DNA of 64,000 nucleotides from Bryobacteraceae bacterium. GTDB taxonomy: Bacteria > Acidobacteriota > Terriglobia > Bryobacterales > Bryobacteraceae. Every line of letters begins with the position of its first letter. The stretch's first letter is position 1. The notes under the pieces are model-generated. The model did not search any database. It was not told the origin of the DNA and saw only the letters and a program-made list of their open reading frames with translations. The stretch is taken from contig JBEKZL010000014.1 of the NCBI GenBank assembly GCA_049509915.1, positions 2,587-66,586 on the forward strand, in the 5' to 3' direction. This document shows, in pieces, positions 40,267-50,249 of this stretch. Made by a program: the position numbers and the translations under genes.

Positions 40267-40630
40267 GACCCACATACATCCGGGGCCGTGACTTTCGCAA
40301 TCTCCAGTGACGCCCACTTTCTCCGAGTAAATCTTTCTACTACGTATCGAAGGTCACAGAAATGAAACACCGTCATTGTCTGTGATGGCAATAACTACTC
40401 ATAGCTCTTCGCCAAGCTCCGGTGGATAGCTGGCGCGTATCAGCGCGCGGGCGGAGGGGGATGGGTTTTGTATCCTTCGGCCGAGAGCGCACCTCCGCCG
40501 GCGGGTCCAACGCTCGTGCATCTCTCGCAACGCCGTGATTCCCGTGCATAGCGGGTCATCGCTGCACGATCGTGTATCATGAATTGCAGTCCGATGTTAT
40601 ATCCGGTGCCAATTAGATTGGAGGATTGTA

Positions 40631-41506
40631 TTGCCGACAGCTAGCAGTAGGCTATCGCAGGTGTTTGAGAAACGGGAACAGGAAATCACGAACCGGTGGA
40701 TCGAGCAGCAACAGGCGGCCAGCCGCCAGCTTACGGCCGCCGAACGCGATCAAATCAACCGGCAGTCCCGCGAGTTTGTGGGGGCGCTAAAGAGCGCTTT
40801 GCAGCGTAACAGCAGCGATATCTCGGCGCCCGATTGGACCGGCGTCCGGGAGTTTCTAGTGGACTTGTCGAGCCGCAGGGCCAAGGACGGCTACACGCCC
40901 AGGGAAACGGCAATGTTCGTTTTTTCACTGAAGCAACCGCTTTTTTCGGCTCTCAGGAGCGAGTTGGGTGCGGACCCGGCGCTGAGCGAGGAGATCTCGT
41001 TCGCCACAGTATTGATCGATGAACTCGGGCTTTTGACAACCGAGGCATTCCAGAAGTCGCGTGAGGAAGTGATCATACGGCAGCAGAAAGAGCTCCTGGA
41101 ACTCTCCACGCCCGTGGTCCGGCTGTGGGACAACATTCTGGCGTTGCCGCTGATTGGAACGCTCGATAGCGCTCGGACCCAAGTGGTGATGCAGAATCTA
41201 CTGGAGGCCATTGTTCAGACGCGCTCGGATTACGCCATCATTGATATTACTGGGGTCCCCGTGGTAGATACGCTGGTAGCGCAACATCTGCTAAAGACAG
41301 TGGCGGCGGCGCGCTTGATGGGCGCCGATTGTTTGATTAGCGGCATTCGCCCCCAGATCGCACAAACCATAATTCACCTGGGAGTCGATCTGTCGGAAGT
41401 CATTACAAAGGCCACCTTAGCCGACGCATTCGATTTGGCATTGCGGCGAAGCGGGCATGCCGTAGTTCGTCGCGAAGCGATTCCCGCGCCTGCCGCTGCG
41501 AGGTGA
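40631..41506 (+). CDS. rsbR: RsbR-type stressosome protein (N-terminal helical sensor domain + STAS)
   Basis: A GGAGG RBS lies 7 nt before the TTG start. Contains ELSTPVVRLWDNILALPLIGTLDSART and DYAIIDITGVPVVDTLVAQHLL. Confidence 0.85.
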   Translation: MPTASSRLSQVFEKREQEITNRWIEQQQAASRQLTAAERDQINRQSREFVGALKSALQRNSSDISAPDWTGVREFLVDLSSRRAKDGYTPRETAMFVFSLKQPLFSALRSELGADPALSEEISFATVLIDELGLLTTEAFQKSREEVIIRQQKELLELSTPVVRLWDNILALPLIGTLDSARTQVVMQNLLEAIVQTRSDYAIIDITGVPVVDTLVAQHLLKTVAAARLMGADCLISGIRPQIAQTIIHLGVDLSEVITKATLADAFDLALRRSGHAVVRREAIPAPAAAR

Positions 41507-41898
41507 CCGTGGAGCGAATACCGATCCTCAAAATGGGCAAGTTCTTGCTCGTCACGATCCAGGTGGATATGCACGACCGGCTCGCCCTCGCGCTGCAGGA
41601 CGACTTGACGTCGCAGATCGTCAAGTTCCATGCCCACGGTGTGTTGATCGACATTTCGGCGCTTGAAATCGTCGATTCTTTCATCGGACGGATGCTGGCC
41701 AGCATCGCATCGATGGCGCGTCTCCTGGATGCGGAGACAGTGGTGGTTGGAATGCAGCCCGCGGTGGCGATCACGTTGGTAGAGTTGGGGCTGCCGATGA
41801 GAGGAATCCGCACGGCACTGGACGTCGAGAAGGGCATGGCGGCATTGCAGACCGCGATTATTGAAGCAGGACAAGACAATGCGAGTAGTATCCGCTGA
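41503..41898 (+). CDS. rsbS: RsbS-type STAS-domain stressosome scaffold protein
   Basis: Contains IPILKMGKFLLVTIQVDMHD and GVLIDISALEIVDSFIGRML, with the phosphorylatable Ser context conserved. The GTGA start overlaps the rsbR stop. Confidence 0.85.
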   Translation: MTVERIPILKMGKFLLVTIQVDMHDRLALALQDDLTSQIVKFHAHGVLIDISALEIVDSFIGRMLASIASMARLLDAETVVVGMQPAVAITLVELGLPMRGIRTALDVEKGMAALQTAIIEAGQDNASSIR

Positions 41899-42283
41899 GT
41901 CGATGGAAATTCGCAGATCGGATGATATCGCCCTGGTGCGCCAAGCCGTACGTAAGAAATCGATCGCATTGGGTTTTGGCCTGGTGGACCAGACCAAAGT
42001 GGTGACCGCGTCCAGCGAATTAGCGCGCAACACTCTCGATTATGGGGGCGGGGGCGCTGCCAACATCGAAATCGTGGAAAATGACACTCGGACCGGGCTG
42101 AAAATCACATTCGTCGATCAAGGACCTGGCATTCCCGACCTCGACCTCGCATTGAGCGACGGCTACACCACCGGGAATGGCATGGGCCTGGGACTGGGTG
42201 GAGCAAAGCGGCTTTCGCATGGGTTCGAGCTATGGTCGAAACCTGGGGAAGGAACCCGAGTCTCGATTCTTAGGTGGAAGTAA
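41879..42283 (+). CDS. rsbT: RsbT-type serine kinase (GHKL ATPase)
   Basis: Contains SSELARNTLDYGGGG, DQGPGIPD and GNGMGLGLGGAKRL, and is ~134 aa. The TTG at 41861 is an alternative start. Confidence 0.85.
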   Translation: MRVVSAESMEIRRSDDIALVRQAVRKKSIALGFGLVDQTKVVTASSELARNTLDYGGGGAANIEIVENDTRTGLKITFVDQGPGIPDLDLALSDGYTTGNGMGLGLGGAKRLSHGFELWSKPGEGTRVSILRWK

Positions 42284-43294
42284 GTGTCAACGGCGGTTCG
42301 GATCGTTGTAGAAGAGGATAGCATGACGGCGCAGGCGCGCCGGACTGCCCGGGAGATGGCTCTCGCCATGGGTATGGATCCGGACGGCGCCGAGCATGTT
42401 GCGATCGTTGTGACGGAGGCTTGCACCAATCTTCTCAAGCATGCCACTTGCGGAGAAATTCTGTTGCAAGTCGCGACGGAAGTCTCCGATAACATGCCGG
42501 CGCTGGAATTGTTGGCCGTGGATCAAGGTCCGGGGATGAAAAATCTCGATCAGTGTCTTCGAGATGGTTTCAGCACGGGTGGCAGTCCGGGGCATGGGCT
42601 CGGCGCGATCCAGCGGATGTCAAAGCAGTCGGATATTTACACCCTTGCGGAGCGAGGCACGGTGGTCCTGGCCCGCTGGGGGCCCTGGAAAAATGGCTGG
42701 AAGCCAGGCAGCGGCTTCCGCATCGGCGCGCTCAACGTTTCCAAGCCCGGGCAAGACGTGTGTGGTGACGCCTGGGGCGCCGCTCGCCACGACGGGTCGT
42801 TTACGATCGTCCTCGCCGATGGACTTGGACACGGCATGGAAGCCAAACTCGCGTCCACCGAAGCGGTCCGGCAGTTATATCAGAATCCCGAACTGCCGCC
42901 AAAACCACTGCTGGCGCGGATTCACCAGGCTCTCCGGAGTACCCGTGGCGCCGCAGTCGCGGTTGCCCGAATCGACGCCGCGGCAGGTAAGCTGGTTTAC
43001 GCCGGCGCCGGCAATATTGCCGCGCGTATTTACTCGGGCGCTGAAGCGCGGCAAAATCTGGTATCGCTGAACGGGACGGCCGGTCATCAGTGTGATCGCA
43101 TTCAGGAGTTCTATTACCCCTGGCCTGCGGATGGACTCCTGGTGCTTCATTCCGACGGACTTTCGACCGGTACCGGGCTGGAATCCTATCCCGGCGTGGC
43201 CGCCCGCGATCCTGCACTCATCGCAGGGGTTCTGTATCGGGACTTTTGCCGGGGTACGGATGACGCTACAGTGATAGTAACGAAGGGGGCATGA
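42284..43294 (+). CDS. fusion of an RsbT/RsbW-like GHKL kinase domain to a PP2C (SpoIIE-type) phosphatase
   Basis: The N-terminal part contains VTEACTNLLKHATCG, DQGPGM and GHGLGAIQRM. The C-terminal part contains CGDAWG, LADGLGHG and LHSDGL. The GTG start directly follows the rsbT stop. Confidence 0.8.
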   Translation: MSTAVRIVVEEDSMTAQARRTAREMALAMGMDPDGAEHVAIVVTEACTNLLKHATCGEILLQVATEVSDNMPALELLAVDQGPGMKNLDQCLRDGFSTGGSPGHGLGAIQRMSKQSDIYTLAERGTVVLARWGPWKNGWKPGSGFRIGALNVSKPGQDVCGDAWGAARHDGSFTIVLADGLGHGMEAKLASTEAVRQLYQNPELPPKPLLARIHQALRSTRGAAVAVARIDAAAGKLVYAGAGNIAARIYSGAEARQNLVSLNGTAGHQCDRIQEFYYPWPADGLLVLHSDGLSTGTGLESYPGVAARDPALIAGVLYRDFCRGTDDATVIVTKGA

Positions 43295-45451
43295 ATGAGC
43301 GGGACGATTCTTACCCTTGCGATCGCGTGCGAGCGCGACACCGTAGCCGCCCGGCAAAGAGCCCGCCAGATTGCGAAGCTGCTGGGTTTTGAACCGCAGG
43401 ACCAGACGCGCATTTCCACGGCCGTCTCCGAGATCGCCCGCAACGCATTCAACTACGCCGGCGGCGGCCGTGTCGAGTATTCGATCGAAGGCCGCACATC
43501 ACCTCAACTGTTCATCATCAAGATTAGAGACTCTGGATCGGGCGTGCGCGACCTGGAGAGTATTCTCGAAGGCCGCTACACCTCGTCGACGGGCATGGGA
43601 ATGGGGATTCTGGGAGCGCGCCGGCTGATGGATAAATTCGATATTGAGTCGGAACCCGGAAAGGGCACCACGATTTGGCTGAAGAAGCTGCTCCCGGCGC
43701 GGTCCCGGCTTTGGAAACCAAGCGACCTGCCCGGCTTGGCAGCCGCCCTGGCCGAGGTCCCGCAGGATGCGTTTCAGGAGCTGCAGCATCAGAATCAAGA
43801 ATTGCTCCATGCGCTCGAAGAGATCCGCACCCGCCAGCTCGAGCTCACACGGCTCAACCGGGAATTGGAAGACACGAATCGCGGCGTAGTGGCGCTGTAT
43901 GCGGAACTGGACGAGAAGGCGGACCACTTGCGACGCGCCGATGAGCTCAAGTCGCGGTTCTTGTCCAACATGAGCCACGAGTTCCGCTCGCCTTTGAACT
44001 CCATTCTGGCTCTGAGCGGGCTTCTGCTGGACGGCACAGATGGCGATCTGAACAAGGAACAGGAACAGCAAGCCGTGTACATCCGCAGAGCCGCCCGTGA
44101 TCTGCTCGACCTGGTGAACGATCTCTTGGATCTGGCGAAGGTGGAGGCCGGGAAGGTGGAGGCGAAGCCGGCGGATTTCCGCCCCGTGGATCTATTCGCC
44201 GCCTTGCGCGGAATGCTGCGTCCCGTCTTACTGAATCAGGCTGTAGAACTCGTTTTCGAGGATGTGAGCGGCATTCCCGAGATGTTTTCCGATGAAGGAA
44301 AGATTTCGCAGATCCTTCGGAATTTTATCTCCAATGCGCTCAAGTTCACCGAGCGCGGGGAGGTTCGCGTTTCCGCAAAGCGAATCGGCAATGACGCGGT
44401 TTTTTCAGTGGCCGACACCGGAATCGGGATCGCACCCGATGACCTGGGGCGGATTTTTCAGGAATTCGCGCAGGTGGACCATCCGATTCAAAGGCGAGTC
44501 AAGGGTACGGGCCTGGGACTGCCGCTATCAAAGAAGCTGGCGGGCCTGCTGGGCGGTGAGGTGCAGGTGCAAAGTCAATTGGGAATCGGGTCTACGTTTA
44601 CTGCTCGAATCCCTTTGCGGTACGAGGAGAGGGTGGAATTGAACCAGGCGTCGGAATCGGCCATCGCGGCGGTGGCTGCGAATCCCGCGCGCATTCCCAT
44701 ATTGGTGGTCGACGACAAGGACGAAATGCAGATGATGTACCGGAGTTATCTGAAGAACTCTGGTTACGATATGATTTTCGCCAGGACGATTCGGCAGGCA
44801 CAGGAAGTGCTGGAGAGAATCCGGCCGCGCGCCATTATTCTGGACATCGTCTTGCGATCCGAGGATTCTTGGCGATTTCTGGCGGACCTCAAGCGGGACG
44901 CGAACACTCAGGATATCCCTGTGATCGTCGCGAGCACCGTGGAAGATCAGGCAAAAGCATTCCATCTGGGTGCGGACCAGTATCTCTTGAAGCCGGTGGA
45001 ACGAGTCCCGTTGCTCGAACACCTGCAAGCGCTGACCGGCACAAGTCTTCTCCCTCGGATTCTCATCATCGATGATGAGAAACGGGATCGATATGTGCTG
45101 AAACAGCAGTTGGGCGAATCCGGTTTGATCGTCCAGGAGGCATCCAACGGAAGCGACGGAATTCGTGCGGCCAAGTACAGGCCGAACGTGATCATTCTGG
45201 ATCTGACGATGCCCGGGATGAATGGATTCGAGGTTCTGGATGCCTTGAAAACAAACGTCGCCACGAAAGACATCCCGGTGGTTATCTGGACCTCCCGTGT
45301 TCTTACCGAGCGGGAACAATCGCAACTAGAGACAAGAACGGTCGCGACTCTGAGCAAGGACGGAGAGGGCCTCCGACGGATCGCCGACATCGTTCGGCAG
45401 GTTTTGAATTCATCAGGAGTTTACCCTTCGGTAATGTCCCGAAGTGCCTGA
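43295..45451 (+). CDS. hybrid histidine kinase: RsbT-like GHKL domain, coiled coil, HisKA-HATPase_c, two receiver domains
   Basis: The N-terminal part contains VSEIARNAFNYAGGG and GMGMGILGARRL. The H-box is FLSNMSHEFRSPLN, followed by N/G boxes. The receivers contain ILVVDD..ILDIVL..LLKP and ILIIDD..ILDLTMPGMNG. Confidence 0.85.
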   Translation: MSGTILTLAIACERDTVAARQRARQIAKLLGFEPQDQTRISTAVSEIARNAFNYAGGGRVEYSIEGRTSPQLFIIKIRDSGSGVRDLESILEGRYTSSTGMGMGILGARRLMDKFDIESEPGKGTTIWLKKLLPARSRLWKPSDLPGLAAALAEVPQDAFQELQHQNQELLHALEEIRTRQLELTRLNRELEDTNRGVVALYAELDEKADHLRRADELKSRFLSNMSHEFRSPLNSILALSGLLLDGTDGDLNKEQEQQAVYIRRAARDLLDLVNDLLDLAKVEAGKVEAKPADFRPVDLFAALRGMLRPVLLNQAVELVFEDVSGIPEMFSDEGKISQILRNFISNALKFTERGEVRVSAKRIGNDAVFSVADTGIGIAPDDLGRIFQEFAQVDHPIQRRVKGTGLGLPLSKKLAGLLGGEVQVQSQLGIGSTFTARIPLRYEERVELNQASESAIAAVAANPARIPILVVDDKDEMQMMYRSYLKNSGYDMIFARTIRQAQEVLERIRPRAIILDIVLRSEDSWRFLADLKRDANTQDIPVIVASTVEDQAKAFHLGADQYLLKPVERVPLLEHLQALTGTSLLPRILIIDDEKRDRYVLKQQLGESGLIVQEASNGSDGIRAAKYRPNVIILDLTMPGMNGFEVLDALKTNVATKDIPVVIWTSRVLTEREQSQLETRTVATLSKDGEGLRRIADIVRQVLNSSGVYPSVMSRSA

Positions 45452-45477
45452 TAAAGTGTCCTGGTCAGGAGATCTCC

Positions 45478-46575
45478 ATGCCAGCATCATCCATACTTAA
45501 CGTTGACGACTACGCACCTGGGCTGTATGCGCGCACCAAGATTCTGCGACAAGCCGGTTTTGATGTGATTGAGGCAACCAGCGGCGAGCAGGCGCTTGAC
45601 CTGGCGGCGGAGCACAAACCCGCGTTGGTGCTCTTGGACGTGAATCTTCCAGACATGCATGGATTCGAAGTTTGCCGGCGAATCCGGGCGTCTCCCGCTC
45701 TTGCGGCCACTTCAATTTTGCATATCTCGGCGTCCAGCGTTCACGGGCAGCAGCAGGTGCATGGATTGGAGAGTGGCGCGGACGGATATATGGTTGAACC
45801 TGTGGAGCCGGCGGTTCTAGTCGCAACGATCAAGGCCTACTTGCGTGTGCGCGAGGTCGAGAGCGCATTGCGCCGCTCGAACGAAGAGTTAGAGCGCTTC
45901 GCCTATCGAGTGACACACGACCTGAAACAGCCGCTGCGCACGATTTCCTTGTATCAACAACGCCTCGGGAATCACCTTGCGGGAAAACTGGATCCAAGAG
46001 CGGTCGAGTTGATGCAATATATCCAGGACGGCGTGCTGAGAATGGGCGCCTTCATCGATGGTCTACTGAAATACTCGCAATCCAACCACGCGGGTAGCGA
46101 AGTTAGATTGCTGAATATTGAGACCCTGCTCGCCGGTGCTATCGGGTCGCTCGAGGGGGCAATTCAGGAAAGCGGCGCGAAGATAACCCACGACGCGCTG
46201 CCCAGGCTCGTGACCGACCCGCGAATCGAAGACGTGCTGCAAAACCTGATCGGCAACGCGATTAAGTATCGCCGCCAGGATGTGGCGCCGGAAGTCCATG
46301 TGTCTGCTAAACAGGAGGATGGTAACTGGGTGTTCTCTGTTCGCGACAACGGCGTGGGCATCCACCCGGATTACCAGCGCGACATATTTGAAGTCTTCCA
46401 TCGTCTGCATGGCCAGGATATTCCCGGCGCTGGAATCGGTTTAGCATTGGCTCAAAGGATCGTCGAGACCAATGGAGGAAAGTTATGGGTGGAATCGAAA
46501 GTGGGCTCAGGATCTACTTTCTACTTTACGATTCTACAATCCAAACCGGCTGCGCCGAACACCTCGCCAAGCTAA
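45478..46575 (+). CDS. receiver-domain-fused histidine kinase (REC-HisKA-HATPase_c)
   Basis: Contains ILNVDD...LLDVNLPDMHG...MVEP, the H-box FAYRVTHDLKQPLR, NLIGNAIKY and GAGIGLALAQRIV. An AGGAG RBS precedes the start. Confidence 0.85.
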   Translation: MPASSILNVDDYAPGLYARTKILRQAGFDVIEATSGEQALDLAAEHKPALVLLDVNLPDMHGFEVCRRIRASPALAATSILHISASSVHGQQQVHGLESGADGYMVEPVEPAVLVATIKAYLRVREVESALRRSNEELERFAYRVTHDLKQPLRTISLYQQRLGNHLAGKLDPRAVELMQYIQDGVLRMGAFIDGLLKYSQSNHAGSEVRLLNIETLLAGAIGSLEGAIQESGAKITHDALPRLVTDPRIEDVLQNLIGNAIKYRRQDVAPEVHVSAKQEDGNWVFSVRDNGVGIHPDYQRDIFEVFHRLHGQDIPGAGIGLALAQRIVETNGGKLWVESKVGSGSTFYFTILQSKPAAPNTSPS

Positions 46576-46647
46576 GCCGCGCTCGATCCAGGATCTTCCG
46601 CCGGTCGGGTGCGCCCTTTGCCAGCGATTCGATGAAGTGAGCGGCCT

Positions 46648-46930
46648 GCTGCCCATCTAATTTCGCATCGTAGAGCCCGTTCAACAGGTGCATGCCGCCT
46701 GGGCCGGACGTTGCGAGGCAGCAACCTAACCGCCCGGCGTGTTTTGCATAGGCGCACGCCATAGATGCCGCAGCCTCTTCGTGGCGCACCTGGATGAACC
46801 TGACGGCCTGCCGCTGCTTTCGCATCGCCTCCACAATTCCGTTGATGCCGTCGCCGGGCAGTCCAAATACCACTTCAACTCCCCAGGCGCGAAGGGTATC
46901 AACCAGAACGTCGGACGCAGTTCGTTTCAT
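46648..46930 (-). pseudogene. N-terminal ~94-codon relic of a thiamine-diphosphate enzyme (PoxB/acetolactate-synthase type)
   Basis: Reads VLVDTLRAWGVEVVFGLPGDGINGIVEA...IQVRHEEAAASMACAYAK..GRLGCCLATSGPGGMHLLNGLYDAKLDGQ. Family sense then ends, and the ORF runs on into the 3' end of the kinase gene. Confidence 0.55.
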
Positions 46931-46972
46931 ATGAGCCTATGCGTTGCAATCGGAGGTCCAAGGGAATGCCGC

Positions 46973-47195
46973 TCACTCGCCTTTCGTCTTCCGGTGCAGC
47001 CTTTCACGAGCTGCGATCAGGTTTTTCGCGAAAGCGAGGTAATCGAGTTGGCGCTGAGCCGGGTCGGGAGAGCGCAGGACGGCCGAAGGATGGACCGTGG
47101 CAGTGACCGCCTCTGCCGAAGGATAGGGAGAGAATCGCCCACGCTCCTCCCGAAGGCCGCTACGGCGGTACCATTCGTAAAGGTTGCGACCGGTT
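46973..47195 (-). pseudogene. C-terminal relic of a family-4-type uracil-DNA glycosylase
   Basis: The frame reads ...GRFSPYPSAEAVTATVHPSAVLRSPDPAQRQLDYLAFAKNLIAARERL..*. HPSAxLR is the UDG motif B. The frame is closed by a TAA immediately upstream, so only ~74 codons remain. Confidence 0.45.
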
Positions 47196-47486
47196 TACCC
47201 AATATCAGGCGGAAGGCGGTCTGAGGTAGTCGAGTCCTTCTGCCCGATCCTCCCGTAGCGCAATGGCGGCTATATCTGAGTAATTGCTGCGCGTGCGGTC
47301 TGTCCTCAACTCGTCCGTCTCGCTAAAATCTTCGAAATCCTCCTGGGTCTCTCTACTCAGGGGTAAACGTGAGATAAAAATGTCGACCATACGTCTTATA
47401 CCGTCCGCTTCTACTGAGACGCTGGTTGCATGTAGTATGCCAAAACCTTTGGGTTGGTTCTGGCAGCCCAGAGTTACCTGTGATTA

Positions 47487-48524
47487 TCATAAAGTGCGAG
47501 CCAGCGATCCTCGAGTTTCTTTCAGGTCCGACTGGATTCGCCGAGCCTCGTGCGACCCCCCGCGTGACGGCGGCCGGCGGGCGCACTCGGGCGCTTGTCC
47601 GGAAACTGCGCGAGCCGGTGCGCGTTTGTTCGCGCCCGCCCCGACACAGCGGGGCGGCGAAGGTCGTCGAACTGTGACACGACGAACGGCTTCGGCGGAT
47701 TGCACCGCGGTCCTACGGCGCGTGACCAAGGCCCGCCACGCTCTTCGAGCCTGGACGCAGCCGTGGCCGGTGTCGACTGCATCACCCCTCTCGCCAGTCT
47801 GAGGATTCCAGACTCGGATCGTGCCGTCTGCACCTCCCGAGGCGAGTAGCCGCGGCAAGGCGCTAAAGTCCAGCGCCCAAACGGAATTGATGTGCGCGCT
47901 GAGTTGGCGCTGGAAAGCGAAACCGCCCGCGGCGTCCCATATGCGGATAGCGGCGTCGCGGCCAGAAGACGCAAACAGTGCGCCGTCGGGACTGAACGCC
48001 AGCGACCAAACAGATTTCCGATGACCGCCGAGCTCGATGCGGCTCTTCTCCCCCTCCTCGACATTATAGAGTCGCACGCGAGCGCCCGCGGCTGCGGCCA
48101 GCCGCTTGCCGTCGGGACTGAACCGAAGGCAGTGCACGACCGGAGACTGCATGGGCAGCGCATCCACCCGGCGTCTCGCTGCCCAATCGTACAGCGGGAC
48201 ATGGGCCCCGTAGCCGCCGGCGGCGAGGATGTTCCCGCGCGCTGCGAACGCCAGTGAAGGCACCGGCCCTTCGCAAAGCTTCACGGCAGTGATTTCGGGC
48301 GCGGCGGAAGAGAGCGTCGCGATCCGCACTGTGCCGTCGTTGCCGCCCCGGGCGTAGGCCCCGCCTCCAGGGTGAATTGCAGCGCTCCAGACCGGTCCGT
48401 TATTGCCGGTGTGAGTCCGGCAAACGAGCCGGAACGAAGCGTCCCAGAGCTCGACCACGCCGTCCGCGCTGGCCGCCAGCAGAAGTTTACCGGCCGGTCC
48501 GAAGGTCAGTGCCAGAATCCGCAT
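47487..48524 (-). CDS. WD40-repeat protein (six recognisable blades; the 3' third is degenerate)
   Basis: Blades end in DGVVELWD, DGTVRIAT, RVRLYN, DAAIRIWD and DGTIRVWN. After about residue 245 the translation becomes Arg-rich low-complexity sequence. The start overlaps the caspase gene by 19 nt. Confidence 0.65.
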   Translation of the reverse strand: MRILALTFGPAGKLLLAASADGVVELWDASFRLVCRTHTGNNGPVWSAAIHPGGGAYARGGNDGTVRIATLSSAAPEITAVKLCEGPVPSLAFAARGNILAAGGYGAHVPLYDWAARRRVDALPMQSPVVHCLRFSPDGKRLAAAAGARVRLYNVEEGEKSRIELGGHRKSVWSLAFSPDGALFASSGRDAAIRIWDAAGGFAFQRQLSAHINSVWALDFSALPRLLASGGADGTIRVWNPQTGERGDAVDTGHGCVQARRAWRALVTRRRTAVQSAEAVRRVTVRRPSPPRCVGAGANKRAPARAVSGQAPECARRPPSRGGSHEARRIQSDLKETRGSLARTL

Positions 48525-49336
48525 TGCCGTCCGGCGATGGCCCCGGTCGGTTCATACCCGGGAATCAGCCCCACGCCGGACCGCACGACAGCCGGTCCCG
48601 ATTTCACGCCACAACGCGCGATCACCAGGGCGCCACGAACATCCCTGGACCACTTTTGTGGCAACTGTTGCGCATCCGCGCGCACGTGCTCGAAGACGTA
48701 CTCATATAACTCGTCCATGGTGACGAGCCCGTCGCCATCCAGGTCCGCCTGACCGCTCTGCACGCCCTCGATGATGTATTTGGTCAGCAGCCCGTAACGG
48801 TCGCCCTCGCGTTCGCGCGCGGCCTGCACGGCAGTCGACGCCGTGAGGATGTAGCTGCCGCTGCCTCCGGAAACGCGCTGCAACTGATCGTCGATGCCGC
48901 CCCGGAAAAACGCCTGTCCAGCGGCTCCGCTGTAGCAGCAGTCGAGGATCAGCACGATTTTGTTCGACCGTGAGTTGTCGATCATGCATCGAATCGACTC
49001 GATCGGGATCGAGGTGGACTCGAGCGCGTCGGCGACTGTATCCACGCTTGCAAGGTGTAGCCGTCCGTTGTCGTCCTGTTTGCCGTGTCCCGAGTAATAG
49101 AGCAACACGAGATCGTCCTTCGTGGCGACGCGCAGCGCCAGGTTCACCTGCCGCAGGCCCTCATAGTGGGGAACGTTCTTCAGAACGTTGATGCCTTCGG
49201 GCCGGAAGTCGCCGTTGGCCGCCAGTATTTCGGCGAGTCCATCCGCGTCGTTTTCAGGGCAGCGCAGCGGCGCCATCCAGGACTCGGCCTGAAAGCGGCT
49301 GCTGGCGATTAGCACGCCGAATCGACGTTCGGCCAT
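48506..49336 (-). CDS. caspase-family (peptidase C14) protease with C-terminal EF-hand-like loop
   Basis: The catalytic contexts LLYYSGHGKQDD and VLILDCCYSGAAG are present. The calcium-loop consensus DLDGDGLVTMDE matches DxDxDGxIxxxE. Confidence 0.8.
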   Translation of the reverse strand: MAERRFGVLIASSRFQAESWMAPLRCPENDADGLAEILAANGDFRPEGINVLKNVPHYEGLRQVNLALRVATKDDLVLLYYSGHGKQDDNGRLHLASVDTVADALESTSIPIESIRCMIDNSRSNKIVLILDCCYSGAAGQAFFRGGIDDQLQRVSGGSGSYILTASTAVQAAREREGDRYGLLTKYIIEGVQSGQADLDGDGLVTMDELYEYVFEHVRADAQQLPQKWSRDVRGALVIARCGVKSGPAVVRSGVGLIPGYEPTGAIAGRQCGFWH

Positions 49337-49343
49337 CGCAGCT

Positions 49344-49712
49344 CTACCCCTGGGAGAATTGCTCCGCGAGCTTGGCGGTCTTCTCGATCTGGTCGGCTGC
49401 CATATTTTCGGCGTTAATGGTCAACGCCCGCCCGTCGGGTTTCTTGAGTTCCACCTGAAGGGAGCTCTTGCGTTGAAAGTAGGTCTCCAGGACCTTGATG
49501 AGTGCCACGGCCGAGCCGCCACTCAGAAACGTTAGGGCGATAGTGCCAAGGGTCACCGGATCGCCGCGCGACCCGGGCGCGGCCGCGGCGGGTTCCGGCA
49601 GCGCGGCGGTCATGTCGGTCTCGCGACTCAGCGTCCTCACCAGATCCCGCGTGAGTTGCTGCTTTTGCTCGTCGCCCGCCTCCGGGTCCGTTATGCAAAG
49701 AATTGCCTGCAT
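49344..49712 (-). CDS. small protein resembling the effector-associated constant component (EACC1)
   Basis: 122 aa. It has an acidic N-terminal region, a Pro/Ala linker, a hydrophobic helix (LGTIALTFLSGGSAVALIKVL), then LQVELKKPDGRALTINAENMAADQIEK. It lies 8 nt upstream of the caspase gene. The family call is from memory. Confidence 0.55.
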   Translation of the reverse strand: MQAILCITDPEAGDEQKQQLTRDLVRTLSRETDMTAALPEPAAAAPGSRGDPVTLGTIALTFLSGGSAVALIKVLETYFQRKSSLQVELKKPDGRALTINAENMAADQIEKTAKLAEQFSQG

Positions 49713-49818
49713 TGGGACGTCCGCTCAGGATCATAGCACCGGGGCGATTTCAGGACTCTTGTCTCACGCAAGATGAGCCTGAAGAGGAAAGACGGGATGC
49801 TAGGGATTGATCATCAGC

Positions 49819-50164
49819 ATGGACGACACAGAGGCCACGAGCCTGGAGCAGATTCGGGCGTTCCTGGCCGGCAGCGGAGGAGTGCGGTTTGCCGGCCAGC
49901 GGCGCGAGGAGGTGCACGGTTGGGTCGAGAAGACGCTGGTGCGGCTCCAGTACCCGAGCTTGGACAAGCCCCGGCAGCGGATTGGTCCGGCGATACCTCG
50001 CGCGGATGACGGGGCTGAGCCGGGCCCAGGTCACGCGCCTGATCGCGCTCCAGCGCCGCATGGTGTACCGCCGGGAGCGCGGCGGCCAGGTTCCACTGAA
50101 TCAGCCTGCTCACCCCAGAATACCGTCTCAAAAGATACGCGACCACAGTAAAGCCCGAAAGTGA
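49819..50164 (+). mobile_element. frameshifted N-terminal relic of an integrase-core (DDE) transposase
   Basis: MDDTEATSLEQIRAFLAGSGGVRFAGQRREEVHGWVEKTLVRLQY continues after a frameshift near 49980 as GLVRRYLARMTGLSRAQVTRLIA. No catalytic domain follows. Confidence 0.5.
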
Positions 50165-50249
50165 ACACCGGCGGGCTAAGGAAGTCCTGAAAGGGCGGCC
50201 GCGGCCAGAATTGGCTGACCCATTCGTCCGTTGGGCCGTGTCGGGGGAT

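Follow-up and report, generated by a model that had tools for sequence, protein, structure and literature searches.

EACC1 systems have been described as membrane-associated two-gene systems in which the C-terminus of the caspase can carry any of up to ~50 alternative modules, STAND NTPases and superstructure-forming repeats included (Kaur et al. 2020, PMC7159879). More recently, an Avs12-fused caspase encoded adjacent to EACC1 in Ktedonobacter racemifer was reported to cleave EACC1 in the vicinity of Asp49; of the two fragments (5.7 and 7.1 kDa), the C-terminal one is toxic by itself, and cleaved EACC1 permeabilises liposomes and was described as a pore-forming toxin (Evans et al. 2025, bioRxiv 10.1101/2025.11.14.688446). 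Here, we analysed a stretch of 64,000 nucleotides from a Bryobacteraceae bacterium (Acidobacteriota; contig JBEKZL010000014.1, positions 2,587 to 66,586; henceforth, the window), whose minus strand harbors an EACC1 gene followed by open reading frames (ORFs) for a caspase and a WD40-repeat protein. We think it likely that this locus is a degraded copy of an EACC1–caspase two-gene programmed-death module of the abortive-infection type.

The three ORFs span positions 49344-49712 (122 aa), 48506-49336 (276 aa), and 47487-48524 (345 aa), with a spacer of 7 nt between the EACC1 and caspase ORFs and an overlap of 19 nt between the caspase and WD40 ORFs. An initial interpretation of the locus, made from its letters alone (the sequence-only reading), had the overlap right, gave the spacing as 8 nt, and took the arrangement for a three-gene cassette. 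This last claim did not hold: in relatives, caspase and WD40 repeats are encoded by one gene (for 565 or 654 aa), which in the window is split by a 1-nt deletion. The resulting features are as follows:

49713-49754, minus strand: 42-nt upstream leader, homologous to the cassette of the related locus L005 and forming the 5′ edge of the conserved block (blastn)
49344-49712, minus strand: intact EACC1 gene, 122 aa (PF19953)
48506-49336, minus strand: caspase ORF, 276 aa, the 5′ part of the frameshifted caspase–WD40 gene (Peptidase_C14, NF047832)
48520-48522, minus strand: site of the 1-nt deletion between the caspase and WD40 parts (MAFFT; blastn versus L005 and L006)
47749-48524, minus strand: WD40 part, blades 1–6 and the first strand of blade 7 (WD40 profile)
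47487-47748, minus strand: 86-codon read-through into unrelated DNA, outside the ancestral gene (alignment to L005)

Curated profiles support the assignment of the first two ORFs, to EACC1 and to the EACC1-associated caspases, respectively. NCBI ABSH56_03490, from a Bryobacteraceae (Acidobacteriota) metagenome-assembled genome (MAG), is 100% identical to the 122-aa protein, which shares 83% identity with the EACC1 of L005, and matches the Pfam EACC1 model PF19953 (E 2.9e-10; 40.5 bits, gathering cutoff 23.6) over profile positions 3-104 of 107. Its hydrophobic Gly-rich segment, LGTIALTFLSGGSAVALIKVL, forms the single hydrophobic helix with a central small/Gly patch that the family requires, and in an alignment of the seven closest EACC1 sequences G56, G66, A70, and L71 are invariant. 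A profile built from these seven sequences retrieved 660 clusters, mostly of 120–125-aa proteins; scanning metagenomes with the EACC1 alignment returned four short contigs only, uninformative as to gene neighbourhoods. The 276-aa protein, in turn, matches Peptidase_C14 (E 4.6e-11) as well as the NCBIfam model NF047832, ‘caspase, EACC1-associated type’ (E 1.8e-47; 161.6 bits, cutoff 140). A sequence search of the PDB with the caspase gave no match; its AlphaFold2 (AF2) model (pLDDT 86.5, with residues 252-276 disordered) retrieved the MALT1 paracaspase and metacaspases as top Foldseek matches (E ~1e-13). His84 and Cys133/Cys134 are invariant in an alignment of 57 sequences. The sequence-only reading had recognised EACC1, the intact His/Cys dyad of the caspase, and in the cassette as a whole a candidate conflict module, and the profile scores and alignments bear it out on all three. 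The defence-system finder PADLOC returned only a weak generic caspase match and a spurious HEAT-ARM match at this locus and did not flag EACC1.

This composition resembles ‘System 4’ of Kaur et al. (2020), with a 5′ EACC1 gene encoding one conserved Gly-rich hydrophobic helix and a 3′ gene that, in relatives, joins an N-terminal caspase to a variable module, here superstructure-forming WD40 repeats. A separate NTPase is not required in System 4, and neither the three ORFs nor the four genes of the closest relatives gave a match to a P-loop NTPase family (STAND, AAA+, MoxR, or GTPase). The sequence-only reading had likewise found the NTPase missing. Its premise that STAND/AAA NTPases form the core of the published EACC1 systems was mistaken, however: the NTPase is one of ~50 optional modules, so its absence is no departure from the published systems (PMC7159879). 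What does differ from System 4 is the host—Acidobacteriota (Bryobacteraceae), where the published account stresses actinobacteria and some proteobacteria—and the state of the second gene, whose caspase–repeat fusion is broken and truncated in the window.

The intact state of that gene can be read from relatives. In L005, caspase and WD40 repeats form one 565-aa protein, encoded at the same short spacer after EACC1, and a more distant acidobacterial relative (L009/L010) carries a caspase–WD40 fusion of 654 aa. The window and L005 align over a block of 89% DNA identity (49754-47749 in the window, 5163-7173 in L005), within which the caspase shares 91% amino-acid identity with L005 residues 1-274 and the WD40 part 89.5% with residues 274-530. 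Comparison with L005 and L006 by MAFFT and blastn revealed that one G is deleted at ~48521, turning GCGGGATT into GCGGATT; the window reads GCGG-ATTC where both relatives have GCGGGATTC. Within the coding part of this block, no other indel shifts the frame. The caspase frame stops four codons past it, these final four codons and the stop being out of frame relative to the ancestral gene, and the alternative frame offers an ATG (MRILAL...). Programmed frameshifting was considered and rejected: the –1 slip needed to restore the frame would have to occur at CGGATTC, a heptamer without slippery character, and it would leave the 3′ truncation in place.

The truncation itself lies at the other end of the 345-aa ORF. 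This ORF matches the WD40 profile (E 2.9e-40) with six blades and the first strand of a seventh, after which follows an 86-codon tail devoid of homologues and composed of 23% Arg, versus 8% in the body. The sequence-only reading had seen the same six blades and Arg-rich tail, estimating the latter at ~100 codons. Homology to L005 ends at 47749, that is, at residue 530 of 565 and within the seventh blade: L005 reads GHGCVQ-AIGFNPKSLALASAGATGGIVLWTLAHEEHVMEANP, which closes blade 7, and its gene ends ...GHGCVQAIGFNPKSLALASAGATGGIVLWTLAHEEHVMEANP, whereas the window reads GHGCVQ-ARRAWRALV... for 86 codons. The predicted propeller therefore retains little of its seventh blade. With the WD40 module cut off from the caspase and most of blade 7 gone, we class the window copy as a degraded member of the family; the caspase-fused C-terminal module that characterises System 4 is found in L005 and L009/L010 and is lacking in the window. 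A WD40 gene that is a dead fragment had been counted by the sequence-only reading as evidence against its own proposal, and the frameshift and 3′ truncation found here are evidence of that kind.

Beyond these relatives, the pairing of EACC1 with a caspase proved widely conserved. The caspase gene directly follows EACC1 in L005, L008, and L009/L010, as well as in seven of eight further EACC1 loci from GTDB genomes (Sneathiellales, Gammaproteobacteria, Holophagaceae, Acetobacteraceae, Chloroflexota, and a Nitrososphaeraceae archaeon); at the eighth, L024 of the archaeon, a caspase fragment lies upstream of EACC1 instead. The C-terminal regions of the caspases vary among the further loci, some being unknown and those of Chloroflexi carrying 12–13 WD40 repeats, and no recognisable NTPase was present in the proteins scanned at the eight loci. 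In every intact relative examined (L005, L009/L010, and the Chloroflexi loci L025/L027), the repeats are fused to the caspase. The sequence-only reading had proposed a survey of EACC1 neighbourhoods; across every complete related locus examined here, caspase adjacency is conserved, and no NTPase was recognised in the proteins scanned.

Two of the related loci have peculiarities of their own. At L024:8091-9288 (uncultured Nitrososphaeraceae archaeon, CAWBAU010000001.1), the EACC1 relative (33% identity, E 2e-11) is directly preceded by a 278-aa ORF that starts at the caspase Cys motif (DCCYSG), with no full caspase downstream. The copy at L008:7193-12431 (Candidatus Solibacter, JAPKZC010001045.1) also looks damaged: its EACC1 has a 15-aa internal deletion (107 aa), its caspase–WD40 gene is spread over two frames and yields three ORF calls, and its TssA-like gene yields two. 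The damage in L008 would be explained either by the module having decayed repeatedly or by sequence errors in this MAG.

How would the intact form work? EACC1 would be a small, autoinhibited pore-former, and the second gene would encode a caspase fused to a seven-bladed WD40 propeller serving as sensor. A trigger binding the propeller would activate the caspase, presumably by induced proximity, and the activated caspase would cut EACC1 in its exposed linker, freeing a C-terminal fragment of ~7.6 kDa that would oligomerise into a membrane pore and thereby kill the cell. The same logic operates in bacterial gasdermin modules, where an adjacent caspase-like protease strips an autoinhibitory piece off a pore-former to bring about cell death; the fold of the pore-former is unrelated, and the inhibitory piece is N-terminal in EACC1 but C-terminal in bacterial gasdermins.

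The predicted structure of EACC1 is compatible with such a scheme. In the AF2 model (pLDDT 76), an N-terminal beta-alpha-beta unit is followed by a linker, a strand, a helix, a hairpin, and another helix; Foldseek with this model found no significant match in the PDB, and a sequence search of the PDB gave matches at chance level only. The linker (residues 42-54) is of low confidence or disordered and holds an invariant RGDP motif, part of the G47-x-R49-G50-D51-P52-x-T54-x-G56 pattern that directly precedes the hydrophobic segment and is invariant in the seven closest sequences. A [RK]GD motif occurs in 107 of 149 representatives of the EACC1 subfamily. We infer that R49-G50-D51-P52 is the cleavage site: a cut after D51 is computed to yield fragments of 5.4 and 7.6 kDa, and because these sizes are near the published ones (5.7 and 7.1 kDa, with Asp49 in place of Asp51), EACC1 in the window lineage would act by the published mechanism, from which the step from cleavage to pore formation is taken (bioRxiv 10.1101/2025.11.14.688446).

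The two systems share a two-domain EACC1 with an exposed linker, predicted in our case, and part ways at the sensor, which in K. racemifer is a STAND ATPase (Avs12) recognising phage tail connector proteins and in the window is, or was, a putative bare WD40 propeller without an NTPase. A caspase-like protease combined with a WD40 beta-propeller sensor is likewise found in Apaf-1-like bacterial caspase/STAND/WD40 proteins (bioRxiv 10.64898/2026.01.04.697583); the window lineage differs from these in having no NB-ARC/STAND domain between protease and propeller. The statement of the sequence-only reading that no such system had been characterised is thus outdated for EACC1 and its caspase, and still applies to the version with a WD40 sensor.

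In the window, the 1-nt deletion would have uncoupled the caspase from the propeller, and a deletion or rearrangement would have removed the end of blade 7 along with everything downstream, which in relatives comprises a fused TssB–TssC sheath gene and a TssA-like gene. With sensor coupling broken, the module is most likely no longer triggerable, though its EACC1 and caspase-domain ORFs are intact, and the locus most likely reflects recent pseudogenisation within a small island of gene relics. Some observations weigh against this reading. When the window is compared with L005, the ratio of nonsynonymous to synonymous substitution rates (dN/dS) is no higher for the WD40 part (0.18) than for the caspase (0.18) and EACC1 (0.22), so that relaxed selection is not yet visible; either the lesions are recent or the pieces are still functional, and this is the main caveat. 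In addition, the shifted-frame ATG, whose ORF overlaps that of the caspase by 19 nt, could yield a separate WD40 polypeptide, and we infer loss of function solely from the missing blade and the lost fusion.

These same observations are what a functional split variant would predict, in which the frameshift created a genuine three-gene system whose caspase and six-bladed WD40 protein act in trans. The ATG in the new frame, an overlap of 19 nt as is typical of translational coupling, the dN/dS of 0.18 in the WD40 part, and the fixation of the allele across the four sampled assemblies all fit. We nevertheless hold such a system to be unlikely, given that the repeats are caspase-fused in all intact relatives examined—the other split copy, L008, looking disrupted too—and that, beyond its first strand, blade 7 gives way to 86 Arg-rich codons of no homology, which would leave the propeller unable to close normally. 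Besides, the low dN/dS mostly reflects divergence older than the lesion, and the neighbourhood is full of relics. That the lesions are instead artefacts of sequencing or assembly, and the true genome carries an intact caspase–WD40 gene, is a thought invited by the source, a MAG, and by the position of the deletion within a short G run. It is very improbable, because the lesions recur identically in independent assemblies: the 101-nt segment across the deletion site is the same in L001, L002, and L003, a 3.3-kb region is 100% identical in the three independently assembled metagenome contigs (JGI, Logan) and differs by one base in a fourth, and L001 and L002 share the sequence that follows the 3′ breakpoint.

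The remaining alternative concerns the family assignment rather than the decay. Acidobacteriota commonly encode caspase-domain proteins, and other C-terminal domains are found in many homologues of 50–60% identity, so the caspase could be a housekeeping orthocaspase outside any conflict setting and the EACC1-like ORF beside it a coincidence. However, the caspase scores above the curated cutoff of the EACC1-associated subfamily, EACC1 scores above the Pfam gathering threshold, and the adjacency with its 7-nt spacing is conserved across phyla; adjacency and profile scores effectively refute this alternative, to which we assign next to no weight. A degraded EACC1–caspase module hence remains our preferred explanation of the locus.

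The intact relatives extend the cassette in a direction that the window copy has lost. Directly after the caspase–WD40 gene, L005, L008 (identical to L019), and L009/L010 encode a fused TssB–TssC sheath protein (VipA plus VipB, ~648 aa) of the type VI secretion system (T6SS), with an overlap of 4 nt in L005, the sole locus measured. A TssA-like gene (ImpA_N plus VasJ) comes next in L005 and L008, where the contig extends that far. The blocks, closely packed and with all genes in the same orientation, are located as follows:

L005:5209-10469, EACC1, caspase–WD40, TssBC, and TssA-like
L008:7193-12431, the same genes
L009:989-5035, EACC1, caspase–WD40, and TssBC
L010:929-4964, the same genes

The outer flanks of these blocks differ among the three acidobacterial lineages, and no further T6SS genes, such as those for Hcp, VgrG, or the baseplate, are found on the L005, L008, and L009/L010 contigs. 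The window copy stops exactly where the TssBC partner would start, and tblastn with the TssBC and TssA proteins of L005, L008, and L009 gave no significant match anywhere in the 64 kb of the window. Complete T6SS loci, those of P. aeruginosa and Melittangium among them, can likewise carry a fused TssBC gene; EACC1-linked TssBC proteins share 47–67% identity with one another and 44–52% with the sheath proteins of full T6SS loci. These sheath and TssA genes are absent from the System 4 account (PMC7159879); a link to T6SS sheaths is mentioned neither there nor in Evans et al. (2025), and a literature search found none.

Inherited synteny, with a T6SS that is otherwise dispersed, may explain this association, as may functional coupling. 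Two further arrangements were observed in Acidobacteriota in which an orphan fused TssBC gene lies directly downstream of a WD40 protein: at L033:1-4953, of an NB-ARC/APAF1_C-WD40 protein that is followed by a PARG-like gene, and at L014:5537-10920 and L015:5486-10920, of a seven-repeat WD40 protein that is preceded by a Ser/Thr kinase-FGE-sulfatase gene. Because the block is kept in three lineages with differing flanks, and because these two other immune-type WD40 proteins also adjoin an orphan TssBC, we tentatively raise the possibility—on balance doubtful—that the ancestral cassette consisted of EACC1, caspase–WD40, and TssBC (plus TssA-like) genes, with the orphan sheath protein a working part of the death module. 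The sheath protein could then, for instance, be a bait or a platform, with the WD40 propeller sensing its state of polymerisation, and the trigger could be a phage tail, a foreign tube protein, or an incoming T6SS attack.

Returning to the caspase, the sequence-only reading had also pointed out a canonical EF-hand loop. The loop in question, D198-E209 (DLDGDGLVTMDEL), indeed fits the PROSITE pattern PS00018, and AF2 sets it between helices 183-194 and 207-222, in a helix-loop-helix arrangement. It is single and unpaired, lies within the Peptidase_C14 match, and falls below the cutoff of the Pfam model EF-hand_5 (E 0.011; 15.6 bits, cutoff 25.9). Neither is it peculiar to this locus, since the PROSITE pattern also fits 90 of 120 caspase homologues (P0128-P0247). 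In these 90, the loop is retained as A-D-x-D-G-D-G-x-V-T-M-D-E-L-Y-x-Y-V (window 48710-48748; caspase residues 197-209), whatever the C-terminal domain of the homologue—FGE-sulfatase, TPR, TIR, Sel1, or unknown. This conservation suggests a family-wide metal site, and Ca2+ gating is a reasonable hypothesis for the whole caspase clade, not a locus-specific one.

Finally, we considered the surroundings of the cassette. An intact histidine kinase/response-regulator gene, which ends at 46575, and a DUF2293 gene, which starts at 50248, enclose 3.7 kb that contain, besides the cassette, only fragments of three unrelated genes:

46526-46930, minus strand: N-terminal fragment of a thiamine-pyrophosphate enzyme, 134 aa (TPP_enzyme_N)
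46976-47194, minus strand: C-terminal relic of a UdgX-family uracil-DNA glycosylase (NCBIfam TIGR03914)
49807-50164, plus strand: N-terminal relic of an integrase/transposase, frameshifted, ~100 aa (frame-spliced tblastn)

The thiamine-pyrophosphate enzyme fragment matches TPP_enzyme_N at E 3.2e-27 and lacks the middle and C-terminal domains. Of the glycosylase, the last 48 aa are left (TIGR03914, E 5.7e-6, profile positions 182-229 of 231). The integrase relic, spliced from two frames, shares 36% identity (tblastn E 3e-9) with the N-terminus of a 432-aa integrase, and this full-length relative adjoins TniQ. The glycosylase and integrase relics are visible only via NCBIfam and frame-spliced tblastn, respectively; neither Pfam searches of the flanks (46850-47800 and 49773-50164, in six-frame pieces) nor blastn of 46960-47720 against plasmids gave a match. 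The bracketing of the cassette by relics, which the sequence-only reading had described as thiamine-pyrophosphate enzyme, glycosylase, and transposase fragments, was thus confirmed, and its suggestion of mobile accessory DNA agrees with surroundings that are decaying accessory DNA.

Some further features of the region are recorded here. A 19-nt inverted repeat (89% complementary; 47717-47735 and 50021-50039) has one arm just beyond the 3′ breakpoint of the cassette and the other inside the integrase relic; it roughly brackets the cassette and is a probable chance match in GC-rich DNA. A promoter scan found none, and terminator-like sites occurred at chance level. Adjoining the relic island, positions 40600-46575 of the plus strand harbor an intact RsbR/RsbS/RsbT-like stressosome-type cluster, which, per the gene calls on the identical contig L001, comprises RsbRD_N-STAS, STAS, HATPase_c, and SpoIIE phosphatase genes, followed by two hybrid histidine kinases/response regulators.

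Pfam and NCBIfam models as well as a published mechanism are already available for the family, to which the window adds little more than an acidobacterial, probably pseudogenised example. It does illustrate a course of decay in which the sensor is uncoupled first, while the toxin and protease ORFs are still intact. For the family at large, the comparison yields [RK]-G-D, immediately ahead of the hydrophobic segment and conserved across the EACC1 subfamily, as a candidate cleavage motif, and, through the clade-conserved loop of the caspases, turns Ca2+ dependence into a testable family-wide property. If the sheath genes do belong to the module, the window copy would be a remnant that lost exactly its TssBC partner; and if the pairing of immune-type WD40 proteins with orphan sheath genes is functional, it would tie contractile-sheath proteins to caspase-gated cell death and merits a separate look.

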